Positions 28,755 through 64,000 of a stretch of 64,000 nt of DNA are shown in pieces. Position 1 is the stretch's first letter. The number at the start of each line of letters is the position of its first letter. This stretch comes from a virus (taxonomy: Duplodnaviria; Caudoviricetes), in IMG/VR virus record IMGVR_UViG_3300021431_000096, positions 29,360-93,359 of that record, one strand, 5' to 3'. A program made the translations under genes and the position numbers. The notes under the pieces are model-generated. The model was not told the origin of the DNA. It searched no databases and saw only the letters and a list, made by a program, of their open reading frames with translations.

Positions 28755-29417
28755 TTACATTGCAAACGAGATAAAGTGGCTTGCGCCGTAGATGGCTCCG
28801 ATGGCGATGATGATCATCTTCAGCCAATAAAACACCCATGCACCGAAACCTACCCAGTCGGGATAGTCGCTGAGCACGATGCCCGTGCGCTTGATGCGGC
28901 ACTTGACAAGCCAGATAGTCACCGACTGCCATACATACTGCATGGTTGACAGCAACAGATAGAGCAATGCCGCACCGCCCAGCACATAGAACTCCGCATA
29001 CTTCGAGCCGCCAATGAGCTGACCAGCCAGCAGGACTATCATCGCCCATGCCAGCTGCTCGGCACGGTCGCCCGACGTCTTGCTGCGGTTCTGATACTCG
29101 TCGTAGGCAGCCTGCTCGGTAAGTGGCTGGTCGGCATCGTCCTCGCGCTCAAAGACAGGCTGACGTACTTCCTCCGTCGCTGGGTCAACCAGTTCGAGGT
29201 CATCCTCTAAGATCTCCCACAACTCTGTTCCGAACTTCACGTCATATACCATGCGATAGGTGTCAACATCCATCACATAGCCTGTGCGCCCTGCCAACTC
29301 TTTCGTCTGCTTGGCCCACACATGGTCGCCCTTCTTAAACTTTGGCTCTACTGCGCCCCCCGATAAAGATGCAGGTACCGCATCAGGACGCTGGTTCTTT
29401 TTGTTTTGTTCTGTCAT
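28755..29417 (-). CDS. KOW/SH3-like N-terminus fused to a membrane domain
   Basis: PKFKKGDHV...DLELV followed by three TM segments. Confidence 0.55.
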   Translation of the reverse strand: MTEQNKKNQRPDAVPASLSGGAVEPKFKKGDHVWAKQTKELAGRTGYVMDVDTYRMVYDVKFGTELWEILEDDLELVDPATEEVRQPVFEREDDADQPLTEQAAYDEYQNRSKTSGDRAEQLAWAMIVLLAGQLIGGSKYAEFYVLGGAALLYLLLSTMQYVWQSVTIWLVKCRIKRTGIVLSDYPDWVGFGAWVFYWLKMIIIAIGAIYGASHFISFAM

Positions 29418-53002: not shown

Positions 53003-54337
53003 ATGGCAAAAAGAAAACTTTTCTCAGACGATGACCTTGCCAAGATTGCGTCAGGGTATGATGACTTGTGCGAGTTCCGCAAGAATGAGCCGTCGGCTTA
53101 CGTTGTAATTCATCGGCGCGGGCTATTTGATAAGCTCTGCGGACACATGACCCGTCGCGTCCGCAGGCTGTCTGACGACGAATTGGCAGAGATTGCAAGT
53201 GGCTACGATTATAAGAAGGATTTTCTTCATGGCGACATGGCCGCATATAACACGGCAAAGTCACGCGGCATATTTGAGAAGATTTGTGCCCACATGAAAG
53301 AATACCGAACTCCTTCAGGATATTGGATTAAGGAAAGATGTCACAAAGAAGCATTGAAATATGATAGTCGCATGGGGTTTTGTAATGGCAACCCTGGTGC
53401 ATACGGCGCAGCTCAGTCCCACGGATGGCTCGACGAGGTATGCAGCCACATGAAACCGCAGGGTAACTGGACGAAGCGTAAAATCTATGTGTTCACTTTC
53501 TCCGACGGCTATGCCTATGTCGGATTGACCAATAATATCAAGAGCCGTCTCTCGCAGCACCTCTCCAAGAAGAAACGGTCGCCAGTATGTAAGCACATTC
53601 AAGAGACGGGGGCATCGTTCGAGTTCAAAATCCTTACTGATGAATGGATTGACATGGATGTGGCAGGCAGAGTGGAAGATCAATACATCAGCCAATATGC
53701 AGACGACGGTTGGAAGATGCTCAATAAGAGAGGTGGCGGCCTTGGCAGTCCAAAGCACACCTACTACACCCCAAACCGTCTGCGACGCGAGGTGTCAAAA
53801 TATGAATACTTGCATGATTTCCGCGAGAAATCTCCACAATATTACAGTTACATGCTTGCTCACGGGCTAATTGATGAATATTGCTGTGGGTTGAAGCGCG
53901 ACTTGAAACCGCAAGGATTTTGGACGCTTGAACGTGCGATTGCCGTTGTGCCTGAGTGTAAGTCGCGCCGCGAGCTTGCGTCAAAATACTATCAGGCTTA
54001 TGTCTTAATCAAAGATGCTGGTCTGCTGACAAAGTATTATCCCAACAAGGTAGTATCGAAGAAAAAGATTTGGACCTTGGAGAAGAGCCTTGAAGTAATA
54101 CCTCTTTGTAAATCTCGCAAGGAGTTGCAGAAGAAGTATAGCAAGGCTTACGATACCCTACTGAAGGCTGGAAGGCTTGATGAGTTTTACCCTTTGAAAT
54201 GCAAAAAATACACCGACGAGGAGAAGGCAGCGGCTATTGCTGAGTGCAAGTCCCGCACGGAGTTACATGACCGCTATCCTGCCGTCTATAAGTGGCTGCT
54301 CCGTGAGGGACGTATGGACGAGTTCTTCCCTAAGTAA
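53003..54337 (+). CDS. Free-standing GIY-YIG homing-type endonuclease with helical repeats
   Basis: KIYVFTFSDGYAYVGLT..R..QH...E...LN; flanking W/Y-TxE...C.SR.EL repeats; abuts the terminase stop. Confidence 0.8.
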   Translation: MAKRKLFSDDDLAKIASGYDDLCEFRKNEPSAYVVIHRRGLFDKLCGHMTRRVRRLSDDELAEIASGYDYKKDFLHGDMAAYNTAKSRGIFEKICAHMKEYRTPSGYWIKERCHKEALKYDSRMGFCNGNPGAYGAAQSHGWLDEVCSHMKPQGNWTKRKIYVFTFSDGYAYVGLTNNIKSRLSQHLSKKKRSPVCKHIQETGASFEFKILTDEWIDMDVAGRVEDQYISQYADDGWKMLNKRGGGLGSPKHTYYTPNRLRREVSKYEYLHDFREKSPQYYSYMLAHGLIDEYCCGLKRDLKPQGFWTLERAIAVVPECKSRRELASKYYQAYVLIKDAGLLTKYYPNKVVSKKKIWTLEKSLEVIPLCKSRKELQKKYSKAYDTLLKAGRLDEFYPLKCKKYTDEEKAAAIAECKSRTELHDRYPAVYKWLLREGRMDEFFPK

Positions 54338-54338
54338 C

Positions 54339-56336
54339 CTACCGCCCGTTGGGCGTCATCAGCAACGAATAGCCCTGGCGGAAGTGCTTCACGCCCATGT
54401 AGAGCTCGTCGAAGGCGTCGGTTCCGTCGGTACGGAGTTCCTCTGGTGTCGCGTCCTGAGCATCTACTGAAAGTTTCTCACCCGACTTATCCTTCTTGAA
54501 CGTCGTGCCGTTGTGACCATACGACAGCTTCACGTCGCAGTTCTCGATGGCGGCGATCAACGGCTCACAATTCTGCTTGTTCAGTGCGATGGCAGGATAG
54601 CCGAAGCCCGCGAAAGCCTCGTTGATGTCCTTGTATTTCTGCATGTGGCTCGGCGCCTGCTGCATATCCACGGGGCGCACCTCGATGTGGTATTTCTGCA
54701 GTTCCTGAATCACCGTGTCCTTGATGTCGAGCATCGAGATACCGTGCAGTTTGAACTTTGCCGTGTGCGAATAGTAGTAGTTCACCTTGCGGTTCTTCTT
54801 GAAGTGCGGCTCGTAGTAGTGGTAGAAGTTGCGTATCAGGTCCTGAATCATCTCGCCGTTCTTCACGAACATCGCATTGATCACGTTCAAGGTCTCAACG
54901 CCGTTGCGCTTATACACCTGTCCAATGCAGACCCAGTTTATCAGGTTATTGTAGTCCAGCGCTATCTCCAGGTCGAGGTCGTCTCTCAGGTCGCCGTCGA
55001 GCGTGCAGTCCTTGATGCCGCTCAGATAGTCGAAGTCAGGCGACTCATATTCCGTCGGGTAGGCCGTGCCGCCCACCAGCTGCTTGCCCTGCTTAATTTT
55101 ATACGAGTCGTTGATGGCGGGGCAGTCGTCGTCGATGTAGGTATGCACGTCTGGGTCGAAGTTGCAGTAGAATCCCTCGCCTGTCTTCTTGAGTTTGATG
55201 TTGAGTACACTTGTGGCAAACACGAGCGGCGGCAGCGAGAGCTTCATCTGCTTGATGTACGACTCGCCAAGGATGTCGATATTGTCGAGCGACGATGCCC
55301 GCACGAAGTAGAACGAGTTGCAGCGCAGGTCGTTGATGTGCCTCTGGTATTTCTTCGACCCACGGATGGCCATCATCTCGAAGTGCTCATCCTGCGTGAT
55401 GAGATATTTATAGTCGAACAGCAGTTCCGCGTCCTGCTCGTCGATGAGCTTATAGGATATCAGCCGCTCGATGGTGCCCTTGGTATCTACGGAGTATTGT
55501 CGCGGTATGATTCTGAACCCTCCCTCGCGGGCTTCGACGGCGGCGGCGATGCTGCGGATGCGCTCCTTCGTGTCAGCCGACACCACCTGCACCCTGTGAC
55601 CGCCCCGCTTGGCGTCGCGCAACAGTTCGTTGAAGTACATCACGCGGTCGGCATACTGGTCGAGTTCCTGCTGCACCTGCCGGTACGACATGCCGTCGCA
55701 AGGCCCGTCTTCAATCACCGTGTCCATCAGGTCTTCTTCCTTGGCCAGCCAGTTGCCCTTATTGCTAAGACTCGCGTCGCTGCAGAAGAAAGTCGATTTG
55801 TAGAACGGATTGCTGTCGCCGAAGCCAGGATGCCCCATCGGATGCACGATACCTGAGAGTGCGGGCATTACTTCCTCGTCGATCTTCTTTTTCGGCAGGA
55901 ACTTGCACTCGTCGGCGATGATGTAGTTCAGCGTCATGCCGTTCACGGAGCCGAGCACTGCCAGCGAGGCCGACGCCATCAGCGCCCCATTGGCAAACCA
56001 CATATAGTTGTCGTAGCTCTTCGGACGGATGATGCACTTCGGGATGCTCTTTGGCGGCTTGCCCCATCCGAAATGCACGCCCTCCTGAAACTTGAAGAAT
56101 CGCTCCATTGCGGCAATCACGCCGGGGATGGTGCGCGAGAACAGCTGCTTGCGCGACGAACCGAGAAATACGCCCATGCCCTGCGGCATACTGTTGTTGG
56201 TGGACCAAACTCGCGGACCGATACCGCCGTCTGTCTTGCCCGTTCGACGTGCCCAGAGCAGGCGCATGTGGCGGGCCATCGCATAGAACACCCGCTGTTG
56301 CACCTTATGCAAATATACGTCTCTCGTCTCTGCCAT
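54339..56336 (-). CDS. terL: Terminase large subunit
   Basis: ARRTGKT Walker A, IIADECK Walker B, IALDYN nuclease strand, TDGTDAFD C-terminal acidic motif. Confidence 0.85.
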   Translation of the reverse strand: MAETRDVYLHKVQQRVFYAMARHMRLLWARRTGKTDGGIGPRVWSTNNSMPQGMGVFLGSSRKQLFSRTIPGVIAAMERFFKFQEGVHFGWGKPPKSIPKCIIRPKSYDNYMWFANGALMASASLAVLGSVNGMTLNYIIADECKFLPKKKIDEEVMPALSGIVHPMGHPGFGDSNPFYKSTFFCSDASLSNKGNWLAKEEDLMDTVIEDGPCDGMSYRQVQQELDQYADRVMYFNELLRDAKRGGHRVQVVSADTKERIRSIAAAVEAREGGFRIIPRQYSVDTKGTIERLISYKLIDEQDAELLFDYKYLITQDEHFEMMAIRGSKKYQRHINDLRCNSFYFVRASSLDNIDILGESYIKQMKLSLPPLVFATSVLNIKLKKTGEGFYCNFDPDVHTYIDDDCPAINDSYKIKQGKQLVGGTAYPTEYESPDFDYLSGIKDCTLDGDLRDDLDLEIALDYNNLINWVCIGQVYKRNGVETLNVINAMFVKNGEMIQDLIRNFYHYYEPHFKKNRKVNYYYSHTAKFKLHGISMLDIKDTVIQELQKYHIEVRPVDMQQAPSHMQKYKDINEAFAGFGYPAIALNKQNCEPLIAAIENCDVKLSYGHNGTTFKKDKSGEKLSVDAQDATPEELRTDGTDAFDELYMGVKHFRQGYSLLMTPNGR

Positions 56337-56865: not shown

Positions 56866-57597
56866 TCAAATATTCTCGTCGAAGATGTCGGGCTTCTCTT
56901 CATCGTCGTCCACGGACTGCCATACGCCGTTGATTTCCTCCATCTCCTGCGTCAACTCCCGCTCTGTTAATCCGTACTTTTTCCGCAGCCTTTCTTTTTC
57001 AGCATCCGGCAGGCTTTGTCTGTCGCTCTTCACGACTGACACGTCACCTGTGATGTTGATGTTCGTGTTCGGCATCTGCTCCTGCGGGTCGTCGTCGTCC
57101 TTGAAGTCGTTGTGCAGCTTGAACATCTCCTGGTTGGCCTCCTTCACCGCCTGCCACGTGCCCGTCTGTCGGCCATATTCGCTCAGCCACTCCACGTTTG
57201 CCTCTACCATCGCCAGGTGGATATGCTTCTTCGATGTGTTCAGCCGCGCTAATAATTGATTTACGAGCCAGATATCATTTGAGATGTTTGTTTCGCTTCT
57301 GAGCGATATCGCCCCCGTCTCGGGATGCCGATGCACCCCCAGCGCCTGTGCCATCTCAATGCTCGCCTGATTGCCCATGTCGGCACAGTCCATCAGCTGC
57401 TTGTAGTCCCGCGCAGCGATATTCTTCACGATGGTGCGTATCGGCGTCGCCGGATTGTTCATAAACACGCGGTAGCACTCCAGGCACATCTGCGCCCTGA
57501 ACTTCTGTTCCAGCGTCATATTCATCCGCTCGATGGCCACGCCGCCGTGCGTCCACGCCACCACCTTCTCCAGATAACTCTGTGACAGTTGACTCAT
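56866..57597 (-). CDS. Putative terminase small subunit
   Basis: First gene of the operon containing terL, ~243 aa, helical; assigned by synteny only. Confidence 0.5.
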   Translation of the reverse strand: MSQLSQSYLEKVVAWTHGGVAIERMNMTLEQKFRAQMCLECYRVFMNNPATPIRTIVKNIAARDYKQLMDCADMGNQASIEMAQALGVHRHPETGAISLRSETNISNDIWLVNQLLARLNTSKKHIHLAMVEANVEWLSEYGRQTGTWQAVKEANQEMFKLHNDFKDDDDPQEQMPNTNINITGDVSVVKSDRQSLPDAEKERLRKKYGLTERELTQEMEEINGVWQSVDDDEEKPDIFDENI

Positions 57598-57988: not shown

Positions 57989-58189
57989 AAAAGGCCGCAA
58001 GGTAAATTTTCCCGACAATCGGCGAATGTGTCAAGATTTAATCATTAGCAAACAATTCGCAAACTGTTTGTACCCAATCCCGAGATTGTTTGTACCCGAT
58101 GCGAAAACCGTCTGCTGACGATGACTACAAAAAAGGCAACGCGACGCCTCAGAAGTTCGCAAGTATTAACAAAATGGTTTTTCAACATT

Positions 58190-58693
58190 ATGTCAGATCT
58201 CAGACTGAAAATTAAGAAGACCGTCCTCAAGCGCAAGCTGGAGGGTGCGACCGTGACAGGCTACTACGGGCGCGTGATCACCAACGGCAAGAAGTCGTTC
58301 GACGAAATCGCCCGCTCATCGGCCAAGAACACGACTCTCCACCCGAAGGAAGCCTCACTGGCTGCCGAACTGCTGCTGGAGGGAGTAGCCGAAGAGCTGA
58401 AGCAGGGTTTCATCGTTGACCTCGGCCCACTCGGCACTATCTATCCCGCAGTCAACTCGCCCTGGAAGCAGGACCCCGAGGAACTTTCTCTCTCAGAGAT
58501 GAAGCCCAAGGTGAACTACTCCAGCAGCCGTGGCATCAGCGCCGCCATCAAGGGAGCCGACCTCGCCTGGGCCACCGCCAAAGACGAGGCAGAAGGCACC
58601 GAGACGCCCGATGACGAGGACAACAACGACGTCACCCCCGGCGACGGAGGCAACGGTGGCAACACCGACGGTGACGAGAATCTGGAGGGTTAA
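58190..58693 (+). CDS. HU/IHF-related DNA-binding protein
   Basis: YYGRV...SFDEIA...EELKQGFIVDLGPLGTIYP; G/D tail ending LEG; TGTTTGTACCC twice at 22-bp spacing upstream (58065, 58087). Confidence 0.75.
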   Translation: MSDLRLKIKKTVLKRKLEGATVTGYYGRVITNGKKSFDEIARSSAKNTTLHPKEASLAAELLLEGVAEELKQGFIVDLGPLGTIYPAVNSPWKQDPEELSLSEMKPKVNYSSSRGISAAIKGADLAWATAKDEAEGTETPDDEDNNDVTPGDGGNGGNTDGDENLEG

Positions 58694-59817: not shown

Positions 59818-60120
59818 TCACTCAGCCGACTTGAACGTGATTTCGGCCACGAGCGGCTTGCCGCAGTGAGGACAGACGGCCACTTTGTCGCCCTGCTGCT
59901 CCTGACGGACTGCGCCATTAGCCTTTTCCTCTTCCGTTGGCGGGTCGAACAACTCCGTGACGTGACAACCTATCCCCTCCGCTATCTTATAAAGCACCTG
60001 CACCGACGGATTGCCGTTGACGTGATATGATAATGTAATGGGACTAATGTTCATATTCTCTGCCACCTTTTTTGATGTAAGGTGGTATTTCTTGATTGCT
60101 GCTTTAATGTTTAATGCCAT
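59818..60120 (-). CDS. XRE/Cro-CI HTH regulator with C-terminal CPHCG zinc knuckle
   Basis: KKVAENMNISPITLS...NPS...L.KIA..IG...ELF; divergent promoter arrangement. Confidence 0.85.
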   Translation of the reverse strand: MALNIKAAIKKYHLTSKKVAENMNISPITLSYHVNGNPSVQVLYKIAEGIGCHVTELFDPPTEEEKANGAVRQEQQGDKVAVCPHCGKPLVAEITFKSAE

Positions 60121-60252
60121 AATACTAATATTTTTGTGCAAAGTTAAGCCATTTTTTTGAGAAAACCATAACTTTTCGGCAAAAAATAGTTAAAAACAAG
60201 GAAAATATTTCATTTTTGGCTTAATTTTCTTGTGGAATTCGGAAATTTGGCT

Positions 60253-60478: not shown

Positions 60479-60628
60479 ATGAAGCAATTCAGAGTGACCT
60501 ACACCTTAAACGGTGTGAAATCGGTGCCGATCGACACGTCAAGTCCCGTCGCCGTAGTCGAGAACCTTTCACGCATCGCCATGCTCTCCGGGCTGGTGAT
60601 TGCAAGTCTGACCACTAAACTGTTATGA
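60479..60628 (+). CDS. 49-aa leader-proximal ORF (not in ORF track)
   Basis: MKQFRVTYTLNGVKSVPIDTSSPVAVVENLSRIAMLSGLVIASLTTKLL*; ATGA-coupled to the next ORF. Confidence 0.5.
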   Translation: MKQFRVTYTLNGVKSVPIDTSSPVAVVENLSRIAMLSGLVIASLTTKLL

Positions 60629-60807
60629 GCATGAGCAGACGAAGAACTATCCGTATCGTCGGTAGCAACAACATCGTTGGCAACACCGACACCAGCGTCT
60701 GCAGCAGCGGCATCGTCAGTGCGCTCACGGCGCAGCTGGCCGCAAAGGACAGCCAGATTGCCCGCCTCATGCAGACCATCAGCGAATTAATGAACATGAT
60801 AAAGTGA
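60625..60807 (+). CDS. 60-aa coiled-coil peptide
   Basis: LAAKDSQIARLM heptads; coupled to the HNH gene. Confidence 0.5.
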   Translation: MSMSRRRTIRIVGSNNIVGNTDTSVCSSGIVSALTAQLAAKDSQIARLMQTISELMNMIK

Positions 60808-61298
60808 TGAACTGGCCAGGACTTTTGCGCGAATACCTGTACGTCTGTACCCAATTCGTATGGAAGTGCCTCATGCGGGCACTCCATACGGAGCACAGAT
60901 GGCTGGTGTGGCAGCTGAAGCTGTGGCGGTTCCGCCTTTACTTCACCAACGTTGACATGAGACCGACGGGACCGAAGCACAAATACAGGTCGCCGTACCG
61001 CCAGCAGAAGAAGGCCATCAGGAGGCAGGCGGTGAAGAAGCGCCACAGGCTCTACCGCGAGGCGGGCGGCAAGTGCCAGCTGTGCCACTGCAAGGTGTCG
61101 GGTCGCAAGGTGCAGATCCACCACGTGCTGCCCATCGACCACTTCCCCGAGCTGGGTGCCGACATGCGCAACCTCATGGTGGTCTGTCCCGCCTGCCACC
61201 AGGAGATCCACCAGAACCCCTTCCTCAACGCCCGCCTTATCAAGCAGCGTGCAAGAAAGATGGGCGTGAAATATAAGAAAGTATATAGTAGAATGTAA
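60804..61298 (+). CDS. HNH endonuclease
   Basis: CQLC...IHHVLP...NLMVVCPACHQEIH. Confidence 0.85.
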   Translation: MMNWPGLLREYLYVCTQFVWKCLMRALHTEHRWLVWQLKLWRFRLYFTNVDMRPTGPKHKYRSPYRQQKKAIRRQAVKKRHRLYREAGGKCQLCHCKVSGRKVQIHHVLPIDHFPELGADMRNLMVVCPACHQEIHQNPFLNARLIKQRARKMGVKYKKVYSRM

Positions 61299-61311
61299 AA
61301 ATCAGAAGACT

Positions 61312-61617
61312 ATGAGCAACAAGAAGATCGTAATGGACGAACAGCAGTTCAGAAATAAGGTATGGCTTATGCAGGGCGACGCGATAGACTTTTCGCCTTC
61401 GCAGTATAAAGGCGAAGACCAGCCTATCATTGTGGCATGTGCTCGCGACTCGTTGACATTTGCCGTTGAACGGGCGTCAGACCTGTACGACGATGTTCAC
61501 CCTGCTGAGTGCCCGCTTTGCAGGGAGCGCAGACTGCACCAGCAGCGCATGGATGCCATTCGCCGCAGAGAAGCTCTCAGAGTAGCAGATGCAAAGGAAT
61601 TGTTGAATCTCATATAA
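61312..61617 (+). CDS. Hypothetical (CPLC)
   Basis: ORF in the operon with HNH and TnpB. Confidence 0.55.
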   Translation: MSNKKIVMDEQQFRNKVWLMQGDAIDFSPSQYKGEDQPIIVACARDSLTFAVERASDLYDDVHPAECPLCRERRLHQQRMDAIRRREALRVADAKELLNLI

Positions 61618-61627
61618 TGAAAGGATT

Positions 61628-63679
61628 ATGGAATCATACTTTGACATTCTTGAAAAGCGGCTGTCTCATGGGCTGTCAATCACCAACATTGGCACACAAC
61701 TACAAAAAGAGCGGCTTGGGTTTGCGCTGGAGGTGCATAGACTCATGCCCTTGTGTCCTCTCGTCAAGGAACAGCATGTATTTAGAATTATCTACCTAAA
61801 GAAAAAACAGAAGCAGCCCAATAAGGTCGAGACAAAGCAGTTTATGGACTTCTACCGCAATCTGGTGGTGGTCATGGCCGAAAACAAATGGCCTGCATCA
61901 ACCATGTTTAACTTCACGCATGAGTATAATCGTAACTATGTAATAGAATTAAACGAGCTATGTCAGCGGGCTTTTGATGGCGGTCAGCTTCGAGACGACG
62001 AGATGAATAAGGTTAGAATAGCCGCGCAGGAAGAGGTGAAGGAAACCATCAAGAACAGAAAGAAAGAAGTCAAAGAAAAATCCAAAATCATTAAGTGCGA
62101 GCAGAAAACTGTTGCCAAGCAAGAACGTAAGCAGCGATGCGCCGAGCAAGTGAAGAAACAAAAGAATGGCGGACACCAGCAGGCACAAATAGATCATGCC
62201 TGTCGTCAGGACATGGCAAGGCAACTGCAACAGAAGGTGCATAAGATATACATTGAGCGACACGGCAATGATGTTGAAAGGATTGATGCCGACGAGTACC
62301 GCGAAATATTGTCTATCATCAGCCGTCAGACAACCGATAACCGAAACGCTAATCTGAGGGAAAAGACAGCCGATCGCGAACAGCTGAAGAAAGAAAAGCT
62401 GACCAACCGCGTGTGTCACAAAGTGCGCTTGTCGCTCAACAACAAACAGCGAACTTATATTGATAAATGTATCGGTATTTCACGTTTCACCTACAACTGG
62501 GCTGTTCGTCAATGGCTTGAAGCAAGGGGAAAAGGAAAAGTCGTCTATACCTCGGACTTGTCGTCGCAGTTCTCGGAACTTTCCAAAACCGAATACACCT
62601 TTTCTCGCAAGGTTACTCACAATGCCCGCAACTCAGGATTCAAAGCCTTTAGCGCAGCCATAGATAAGTTTGTAGAGCGAGGCTGGTTTCCTACAATCCA
62701 TAAGCGAAAAGGCATCGGCTCATTCTCATACGTCGCAACTTCTGACAGGAAACAACCTTTTCTCTCAGACTTTAATCCCGACATCCCTGACAGTAAGCCG
62801 AGCAAGAAACGCCAATACCTGCTGATTCCTACTTTCGGATATGTCAAGATGATGCAGAAACTGCGCTTCAATGGATTGCTTTCATACGTCACCATTAAAC
62901 GCGAGGCCGACGGCCACTACTACGCCTGTCTCTACGTTTATGTCAGCCGCGAGGAATGGCAAAACAAGCATCGCGGCTGTAACGATGACCGGACTAAAAT
63001 AGTTCAGCCTCTCGGGATTGACCTCGGTCTGTCTGCCTATGCAACCCTTTCAAACGGAATGTTGATAGAAAGCCGCGATGAGGACGCAAAAGTCATGCAA
63101 CGACAAAAGAAGCTGCAAGCCCGCATTCGCCGATGCGCCAAAGTTCACCCTAAACACACGTCGAATCGGCAAAAGCGGCTGTCGGTGCAACTTGGACGGG
63201 CAAAAGCCAAAATCAGGCACCAGCGCGAGGACTATCTTCACAAACTATCTTCAGCGCTTGCATATACATATAATAATATCGCCATTGAGGATTTGAATAT
63301 TAATGCAATGCTGAAAGAAAATCCAGACATGGCCTTCAAAATACGCGATGCAGCCTTCTACCGATTCCGAAAAATGCTGGAGCAGAAGATGAACATCATT
63401 GGTGGAAATCTGAAAGTGGCTGAAAAGTTTCATCCATCCACACGCATTTGCAGCGTCTGCGGAAACGTGAAGGAGGAAGCATTGCCACTGACACAAAGAA
63501 CATATCACTGCAAGGCTTGCGGAGTCACCATCGACCGAGACTTGAACTCCGCAATCAACCTTGCACGACTACTTGGGCTGGGAGATCCCAACTATCCTCC
63601 TGCCGATAAAGGCCCGCTGACCACAGCCTTGCAAGCCAGTGACATCAGCGTGCATCAGGCAAAGGACGAAAACAGGTAG
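61628..63679 (+). CDS. tnpB: TnpB-family RNA-guided endonuclease with ~260-aa N-terminal extension
   Basis: KVRL...GISRFTYNWA (OrfB HTH), GIDLG (RuvC-I), IAIEDLNI (RuvC-II), CSVC/CKAC zinc finger, DRDLNSAINL (RuvC-III). Confidence 0.9.
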   Translation: MESYFDILEKRLSHGLSITNIGTQLQKERLGFALEVHRLMPLCPLVKEQHVFRIIYLKKKQKQPNKVETKQFMDFYRNLVVVMAENKWPASTMFNFTHEYNRNYVIELNELCQRAFDGGQLRDDEMNKVRIAAQEEVKETIKNRKKEVKEKSKIIKCEQKTVAKQERKQRCAEQVKKQKNGGHQQAQIDHACRQDMARQLQQKVHKIYIERHGNDVERIDADEYREILSIISRQTTDNRNANLREKTADREQLKKEKLTNRVCHKVRLSLNNKQRTYIDKCIGISRFTYNWAVRQWLEARGKGKVVYTSDLSSQFSELSKTEYTFSRKVTHNARNSGFKAFSAAIDKFVERGWFPTIHKRKGIGSFSYVATSDRKQPFLSDFNPDIPDSKPSKKRQYLLIPTFGYVKMMQKLRFNGLLSYVTIKREADGHYYACLYVYVSREEWQNKHRGCNDDRTKIVQPLGIDLGLSAYATLSNGMLIESRDEDAKVMQRQKKLQARIRRCAKVHPKHTSNRQKRLSVQLGRAKAKIRHQREDYLHKLSSALAYTYNNIAIEDLNINAMLKENPDMAFKIRDAAFYRFRKMLEQKMNIIGGNLKVAEKFHPSTRICSVCGNVKEEALPLTQRTYHCKACGVTIDRDLNSAINLARLLGLGDPNYPPADKGPLTTALQASDISVHQAKDENR

Positions 63680-63762
63680 GGCTGCAGACCTAATTCCTGT
63701 GCTCCAAGACCGCCACATGGCGACAGCGATGCCCGTCTGCCTTTACTGGCAGATGGGCTTTT
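63580..63762 (+). ncRNA. Putative TnpB omegaRNA/reRNA region ending at a terminator
   Basis: Overlaps the tnpB 3' end (CCTG...GAAAACAGG pairing typical of these RNAs); terminator GCCCGTCTGCC/GGCAGATGGGC-TTTT at 63731-63762; guide boundary not determined. Confidence 0.4.
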
Positions 63763-64000
63763 GAAAGAATGATTATCTGTATTTATAATAAATCAAAAAA
63801 CAAACACATAGCATATCCCTGGTTTTTTGGATATTTATACTTGACATATATCAATTAATAGGCAATTTCTCCAAAAATGCCTTGCCCGTCAGCGTATGCC
63901 AAATCGGCTCAACTTGCTGACTTTTAAGTGTTTACAAAAATCGACAAACTGCCCGAAACAACTCAATTCCGCTGTAAGTCAAGAAAAATAGATCGGAAGA

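Follow-up and report, generated by a model that had tools for sequence, protein, structure and literature searches.

A nuclease-intact phage TnpB with a conserved N-terminal domain, a putative RNA scaffold and a locus near an apparent genome end

A tnpB gene that stands alone in a phage genome raises the question of what a virus gains from an RNA-guided nuclease. Cas12 descends from TnpB, which is itself a compact genome editor. The domesticated TnpBs that we know of either lost the nuclease, as in TldR and dCas12f-sigmaE, or gained a CRISPR array. Here we describe a long, nuclease-intact phage TnpB, a 683-amino-acid (aa) protein encoded by the open reading frame (ORF) at 61628-63679 on the plus strand of a 64,000-nucleotide (nt) stretch of tailed-phage DNA, referred to as the window. 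The window makes up the last 64 kb of a linear contig of 93,359 bp (IMG/VR record IMGVR_UViG_3300021431_000096, positions 29,360 to 93,359). CheckV estimates 95% completeness for this contig, and its left end is a fragment, with the genome's own left end missing. A first-pass annotation, made from the letters of the window, had proposed that this gene joins a terminase small subunit-like N-terminus to a TnpB. In the explanation we favor, to which we give a probability of about 0.5 as a whole, tnpB would be a fixed, vertically inherited gene of a ruminant-gut tailed phage lineage, outside any transposon. The protein would belong to a domesticated, nuclease-competent, RNA-guided phage TnpB clade with an accessory N-terminal domain, acting most likely as a selfish or competitive nuclease.

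An intact TnpB core behind a conserved N-terminal region

The gene divides into the following parts.

61628..63679, plus strand: long TnpB gene, 683 aa (ORF; Pfam and PHROG domains; alignment to solved TnpBs at 1e-26; about 40 long relatives)
62414..63679, plus strand: TnpB core with WED/REC, RuvC (D465-E554-D638) and zinc-ribbon TNB (domains, alignment to solved structures, motifs)
61628..62023, plus strand: N-terminal module, residues 1-132, a six-helix domain (AlphaFold2 model, family hidden Markov model, substitution ratios)
62024..62413, plus strand: charged helical linker, residues 133-262 (AlphaFold2 model, composition, family conservation, substitution ratios)

A complete TnpB core occupies residues 263-683. 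Three Pfam families pass their curated cut-offs there: HTH_OrfB_IS605 at 264-303 (8.6e-10), OrfB_IS605, the RuvC domain, at 456-563 (4.5e-15) and Cas12f1-like_TNB, the zinc ribbon, at 577-645 (2e-16). PHROG 506 ('transposase') covers residues 260-647, and residues 264-647 align to ISDra2 TnpB (PDB 8h1j/8exa) with an E value of 1e-26. The RuvC D-E-D triad is formed by D465 (GIDLG), E554 (IEDLN) and D638 (DRDLN), and the CxxC...CxxC zinc ribbon by C608/C611/C628/C631. Triad and ribbon are invariant in an alignment of 12 family members. The phage protein thus shares with ISDra2 TnpB the full core, the triad and the ribbon, but differs in having 260 extra N-terminal residues and only about 30% identity. 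The length, the three acidic residues, the zinc finger and the approximately 260 residues ahead of the core had all been read correctly in the first-pass annotation. Domains and motifs place the 683-aa protein solidly in the TnpB family.

The N-terminal region is not private to this phage. A word-index search with residues 1-262 returned two close relatives of the same length, 98% and 70% identical. An exhaustive phmmer search with the region against 1.84 billion representatives returned nine proteins, with E values down to 5e-38; six of these are long TnpBs of 555-791 aa that share 28-39% identity with it in the N-terminal region. With the core as query, about 40 protein clusters came up whose members measure 555-808 aa and have cores that are 37-99% identical; below them there is a sharp fall to ordinary TnpBs of 375-460 aa at about 33% identity. 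A hidden Markov model (HMM) of residues 1-125 matches 39 of 41 long family members. In the longest relatives (P0012, P0135, P0138, P0153, P0157, P0159 and P0160; 784-808 aa) the module match starts about 150-165 residues in, and P0157 and P0159 carry a second, weaker copy upstream, so that the module of about 130 aa stands twice in tandem before the TnpB core. The ratio of non-synonymous to synonymous substitution rates (dN/dS), taken against the 78%-identical relative L001, is 0.054 in the module, 0.14 in the linker and 0.086 in the core. Judged by this conservation, the N-terminal 260 aa are an established architecture, not a one-off fusion. The first-pass annotation knew the fusion from the window and offered as an alternative a chance in-frame insertion of an insertion sequence (IS) into a terS paralogue. 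Because the fusion recurs in about 40 clusters, is kept down to 28-39% N-terminal identity and is under purifying selection, such an insertion is ruled out as a recent event.

AlphaFold2 models the N-terminal region confidently as all-helical (mean predicted local distance difference test score, pLDDT, of 88). Residues 1-132 form six helices with pLDDT of about 90-96. The linker follows as a long charged helix at 135-212 and a further helix at 221-259, and then comes the core. K, R, E and D make up 41% of the linker, and a conserved motif, KVxxIYxxRHGxD...EYREI, lies just ahead of the core. The module found no usable match in Pfam, in a PDB sequence search, with Foldseek in PDB or BFVD, or in the ESM Atlas; a pilotin (3sol) stands far down the Foldseek table. 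VIA gave no usable match either, its list being filled by the long helix of 133-262, so that residues 1-132 were barely probed there.

Searches of IMG/VR with the N-terminal protein sequence and with family alignments found the long form in one other record only, G001. There are 384 GenBank phage records with TnpB-like genes; none covers more than 60% of the 683-aa protein, and the N-terminal region is in none of them. The tnpB-only modules of phages encode proteins of about 400 aa. In the published papers searched we came across no account of a clade of long phage-resident TnpBs with an N-terminal extension. Bovine and sheep gut metagenomes of 12 studies contain the 93,359-bp phage itself. 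The nearest short TnpBs (P0175, P0183, P0184, P0189, P0192, P0203 and P0219; about 33% identity, 412-440 aa) lie on contigs of 97-113 kb, and one relative is named 'MAG TPA: endonuclease [Caudoviricetes sp.]'. TnpBs of ordinary length may therefore also be common in large gut phages.

A putative omega-RNA and the guide position

If the core is a working TnpB, a guide RNA would be expected at the 3' end of its gene. Two elements lie there.

63575..63728, plus strand: omega-RNA-like structured scaffold (covariation; overlaps the last approximately 105 nt of the ORF and 49 nt past the stop)
63729..63762, plus strand: would-be guide start, an 11-bp hairpin (63731-63741 / 63748-63758) and TTTT (same layout in nine of nine loci)

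RNAalifold on nine loci predicts 36 pairs in the scaffold. Of the alignment cells at these pairs 96.3% are paired, against 28-47% when the partners are slid; 13 pairs show compensatory changes, and the observed values were reached by none of 500 shuffles. The synonymous rate in the codons that overlap the scaffold is 0.52, against 1.3-3.0 elsewhere (compared with L001), and the region has a fold z-score of -2.8. An Rfam scan of 61000-64000 gave no family. The scaffold motif has three matches in IMG/VR, two of which are chance matches in coding DNA. From its position and its covariation, 63575-63728 is a putative TnpB omega-RNA scaffold, with the place and form expected of one, and bears out the first-pass expectation of an RNA overlapping the 3' end. 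The arrangement is that of ISDra2-type TnpBs, where the gene's 3' end overlaps a structured RNA and the guide position comes next. In one relative (L005:4060-4080) a TAG stops the TnpB ORF about 11 codons sooner than in the others, within the scaffold region. There the C-terminal tail seems to be dispensable for the protein but retained as RNA.

Directly after the scaffold, all nine loci have a hairpin and a U-run whose sequence differs while the pairing is kept. This is the terminator at which the gene had been said to end. No repeat array is present in 63680-63989, and no direct repeats were noticed in the aligned loci; the adjacent CRISPR array of a type V CRISPR-Cas12 system is missing. 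The first 11 nt of the would-be guide (TGCCCGTCTGC, 63730-63740) recur with one mismatch at 63883-63893, 153 nt downstream. This copy sits in a block conserved among relatives, the match itself is not kept there, and about 0.4 such pairs are expected by chance.

A fixed locus beside an apparent genome end

The surroundings of tnpB bear on whether it is a mobile element or a resident gene.

61312..61617, plus strand: 101-aa ORF directly upstream of tnpB, co-conserved in part of the family
60804..61298, plus strand: HNH endonuclease gene, a variable cassette (Pfam HNH, 8.5e-8)
59818..60141, minus strand: HTH_3 (Cro/CI-type) regulator, divergent from the tnpB operon (Pfam HTH_3, 2.2e-7)
58121..58693, strand not given: HU-HIG protein, part of the conserved neighborhood
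63763..63989, no strand: AT-rich non-coding end region (contains blocks that diverged relatives keep; last phage base 63989)
63990..64000, no strand: adapter read-through (AGATCGGAAGA), not phage DNA (from the sequence; L002 ends one base before)

Neither a Y1 TnpA (PF01797) nor a serine recombinase (PF00239) was found in the whole 93,359-bp contig, in searches for which control genomes gave matches. The solo state first noticed near the gene thus extends to the full contig. No left transposon end was found either: similarity to L001 opens at the ATG and closes past the terminator. TnpA with left and right ends, the hallmarks of an IS200/IS605 or IS607 mobile element, are not present. The phage TnpB departs from IS200/IS605 systems in lacking TnpA and a left end, in its fixed, syntenic phage locus and in having a terminator hairpin as guide position.

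The order HU-HIG, HTH_3, small ORFs, tnpB, about 300 nt of AT-rich DNA and contig end is common to phages whose TnpB cores are only about 48% identical. The HTH_3 regulator is 78% identical to its homologue in L005, and its position is kept in L006, L017 and L020. In L006/L007, where the TnpB is 49% identical in the core and about 32% in the N-terminal region, the ORF that precedes tnpB is 59% identical to the 101-aa ORF. The 101-aa ORF is contiguous with tnpB in four independent runs. Across relatives, two kinds of small ORF are found directly upstream of tnpB. HNH gene, 101-aa ORF and tnpB follow one another on one strand, in line with the proposed operon after an HNH gene. The HNH gene is absent from L005 and L017, and its region (60621-61311) is a swap site: 710 other letters replace 60622-60804 in run X6 and 1164 other letters replace 60622-61310 in run X7, with collinear flanks in both. 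With no recombinase, no left end and a syntenic locus, the view of the gene as domesticated gains support.

The locus lies close to where the phage DNA appears to stop. The phage sequence ends with ...GAAAAAT at 63989, about 310 nt past the tnpB stop, and is followed by AGATCGGAAGA, which we take to be the start of the Illumina TruSeq adapter. Such a run into adapter is typically seen where many fragments share one end base. Contigs of two other data sets (L002 from run X6, and one from run X13) end at exactly 63989, making three data sets in all. In seven assemblies, including the diverged relatives L001, L006/L007, L019 and L020, the contig end lies 275-320 nt past tnpB, and in three independent cases the end falls 35 nt after a conserved TGCCC[AG] block. 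Other relatives depart from this pattern: the L014 contig stops about 560 nt past its tnpB, with one extra gene between, and L017 and L018, whose TnpB protein is identical to that of L019, continue past the end into GC-rich DNA and more genes. Searching IMG/VR and JGI with a 22-mer of the end region returned nothing. A scan of the 64-kb window for tRNAs found none and thus no tRNA-type att site at the end. No terminal repeat joins the two contig ends, a comparison that is uninformative on direct terminal repeats, the left end being a fragment. Taken together, the coinciding ends make it likely that a defined physical terminus or a packaging site lies about 300 nt from tnpB. In L017 (12340-12700) and L004 (2960-3200) the DNA becomes very GC-rich abruptly where the AT-rich end region stops, so that the presumed terminus coincides with a sharp change in base composition.

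What the long TnpB may do for the phage

A homing role has been described for TnpB, which cuts vacant sites under RNA guidance (10.1101/2023.11.20.567912), and domesticated TnpB derivatives carried by phages exist as TldR (10.1101/2023.11.30.569447). In the mechanism we propose, the 683-aa protein would bind the scaffold RNA made from the 3' region of its own gene. The resulting ribonucleoprotein (RNP) would cut DNA that matches the approximately 16-20 nt after the scaffold, a stretch that here falls on the 5' arm and the loop of the operon terminator. On the simplest reading, the module sits between the operon and its terminator, and the flank copied into the guide would therefore be the terminator. 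Targets during co-infection would be related phage genomes that have the terminator and the transposon-associated motif (TAM) but not the tnpB module. Cutting of such module-less genomes would lead to homing or exclusion, and the N-terminal module may add a contact to DNA or to a partner.

Several results weigh against this proposal. The first-pass annotation had suggested comparing the guide with phages and host, and no target of the guide segment turned up in the phage's own 93 kb, IMG/VR, JGI contigs or 185,579 GTDB genomes. Searches of IMG/VR, JGI contigs and GTDB genomes with guide 18- to 22-mers gave nothing, or seven matches with unrelated flanks, below chance expectation, and there were no guide matches inside the relatives' own loci. 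The guide position is also locked in the 11-bp hairpin, which should compete with pairing to DNA. Finally, no joint that skips tnpB (an 'empty site') was found in the contigs of four runs.

The closest precedents share parts of this arrangement. TldR is likewise a TnpB derivative kept as a core phage gene with an adjacent fixed guide RNA, and is domesticated (10.1101/2023.11.30.569447; PMC13418256). However, TldR is a repressor of host genes that has lost its RuvC residues together with the C-terminal zinc-finger/RuvC part, whereas the phage TnpB has an intact nuclease and has gained an N-terminal domain. Neither the RuvC loss nor the C-terminal truncation by which a TldR is recognized is seen here, with triad and zinc ribbon intact. 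The dCas12f-sigmaE systems of Bacteroidetes also combine a TnpB/Cas12f-type protein with an extra helical partner that binds DNA or RNA polymerase, in the same broad host group (PMC13472631). There the sigma factor is a separate protein and the Cas12f is nuclease-dead, whereas the phage TnpB has no detectable sigma domain. By these sequence comparisons the long clade is TnpB family, but is no mobile IS, no TldR and no Cas12.

Could the RNP mainly bind DNA? In such a scheme, short or partial matches, or a hairpin that prevents cleavage, would turn it into a regulator of transcription or replication near the genome end, as in TldR and dCas12f-sigmaE (10.1101/2023.11.30.569447; PMC13472631). The fixed locus beside an HTH_3 regulator and an AT-rich non-coding region would suit this role, as would the sequestered guide and the 10-of-11 match to the guide start 153 nt downstream. 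AlphaFold2 models of the N-terminal module and of a 243-aa protein encoded near the large terminase gene also draw faint BFVD rows for 'RpoE sigma24 homolog' (E 0.3-1.2). However, the clade shows no variation in the RuvC triad or the zinc ribbon, in contrast to TldR and dCas12f. The downstream match is no better than chance and is not shared by relatives, and Pfam finds no sigma domain in the module. We consider a mainly regulatory role unlikely.

A second alternative starts from the N-terminus. The module would be a paralogue of the DNA-binding domain of a small terminase or other packaging-operon protein, and would bring the active, RNA-loaded TnpB to the packaging site and hold it at the AT-rich region near the genome end, tying cutting to the formation or packaging of that end. 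On this view, phage genome termini would be made, marked or defended with the help of an RNA-guided nuclease. Two genes matter here.

56866..57597, minus strand: 243-aa protein, 'TerS' by position only, two genes upstream of TerL (321 homologues)
54339..56336, minus strand: terminase large subunit, TerL (29% identity to an annotated Microcystis phage TerL across 86% of the protein; PHROG 2, weak)

The first-pass annotation had aligned the first residues of the long TnpB by eye with those of the 243-aa protein. The N-terminal strings that it quoted share 12 identities in 43 columns. Pairwise methods give this no significance: a Smith-Waterman alignment of the two N-termini scores 32, a value equalled by 10.6% of shuffles, and BLASTP finds nothing. 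Profile methods recover the same register as the eye. hhalign pairs residues 4-114 with 8-118 at P 7e-4 to 1.4e-3 (probability 17-26%), alike with profiles of 8, 11 or 41 sequences, and the most conserved motifs of both families coincide: G-[LV]-[SA]-I, LE-x-[HY]-R-[LV] and R-x-I-[FV]-[RK]-x-I. With an 11-sequence HMM of the module, the 243-aa protein is the best non-self match among the genome's 330 ORFs (E 0.0028); the reverse search misses tnpB. In the AlphaFold2 models the first helices agree in order and have similar lengths (4-13/24-42/48-60 against 6-16/29-47/53-73). As a null check on the 41-sequence profile, a spurious antisense ORF scored P 0.0014, against P 0.022 for the 243-aa protein as a single sequence. 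Since a spurious ORF does as well, the resemblance is borderline and not clearly beyond chance. The register of the early alignment therefore stands up to profile methods, at a P of about 1e-3, while its pairwise significance does not. That the module is a true homologue or paralogue of the 243-aa protein has about even odds.

The reading of the N-terminus as TerS-like is conjectural. Neither the module nor the 243-aa protein matches a terminase family in Pfam or PHROG, and the 243-aa protein matches no solved TerS fold. They share with phage terminase small subunits no more than a helical N-terminal domain and, for the 243-aa gene, a place near TerL, which tnpB itself does not have; family and fold matches are missing for both. 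None of the 321 homologues of the 243-aa protein is named. Seventeen of 55 members of its family weakly match Pfam Sigma54_CBD (best E 5.6e-4), and language-model features give DUF2280 at 0.90, also a weak lead. From these matches the 'TerS' could instead be a transcription factor.

In favor of the packaging role are the one register on which the alignment by eye, three hhalign runs and hmmsearch agree, the matching first helices, and a second phage, G001, that holds both a long TnpB and the 243-aa family. The recurrent end 275-320 nt from tnpB, reached at the same base in three data sets and here running into adapter, adds a circumstantial point, one of position with no mechanism. Against it, the weak leads for the 243-aa protein lie outside terminases, and the spurious ORF scores equally well. 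TnpB typically cuts 15-21 nt from the TAM, as in ISDra2. The end lies about 260 nt from the guide position at 63729 and 35 nt from a conserved block, unlike that geometry, and between guide and end region there is only the chance-level match of 10 in 11. In L014 tnpB is separated from the end by another gene, and L008 has genes directly after its tnpB. A role of the long TnpB in packaging is unproven, and we regard it as improbable, more so than regulation.

Least probable of all is that tnpB is an inert remnant, useless to the phage: what is left of an IS200/IS605 or IS607 element reduced to tnpB, with an N-terminus that arose by accidental read-through. In its favor, solo tnpB copies are common, TnpB-like genes occur in the 384 GenBank phage records and no guide target was found. 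Against it, each part has a dN/dS of 0.05-0.14, all members keep the triad, the RNA covaries, synteny holds down to about 48% core identity and the N-module is duplicated in some members.

A homing or excluding nuclease thus remains our preferred explanation. The long clade presents a nuclease-intact TnpB long retained as a resident phage gene, one that gained a conserved and sometimes duplicated N-terminal domain, and is an example of accessory-domain addition to TnpB. It is also a testable case of what an RNA-guided nuclease can do for a virus, be it homing, exclusion of rivals or work at genome ends. Protein, RNA and terminus-proximal locus are defined well enough for bench tests.

Beside TerL lies a 444-aa ORF (53003-54337, plus strand) that belongs to PHROG 20046 (5e-61, function unknown) and weakly matches a GIY-YIG homing endonuclease family. 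Together with the HNH gene, this match suggests that the phage carries several homing-type nucleases.

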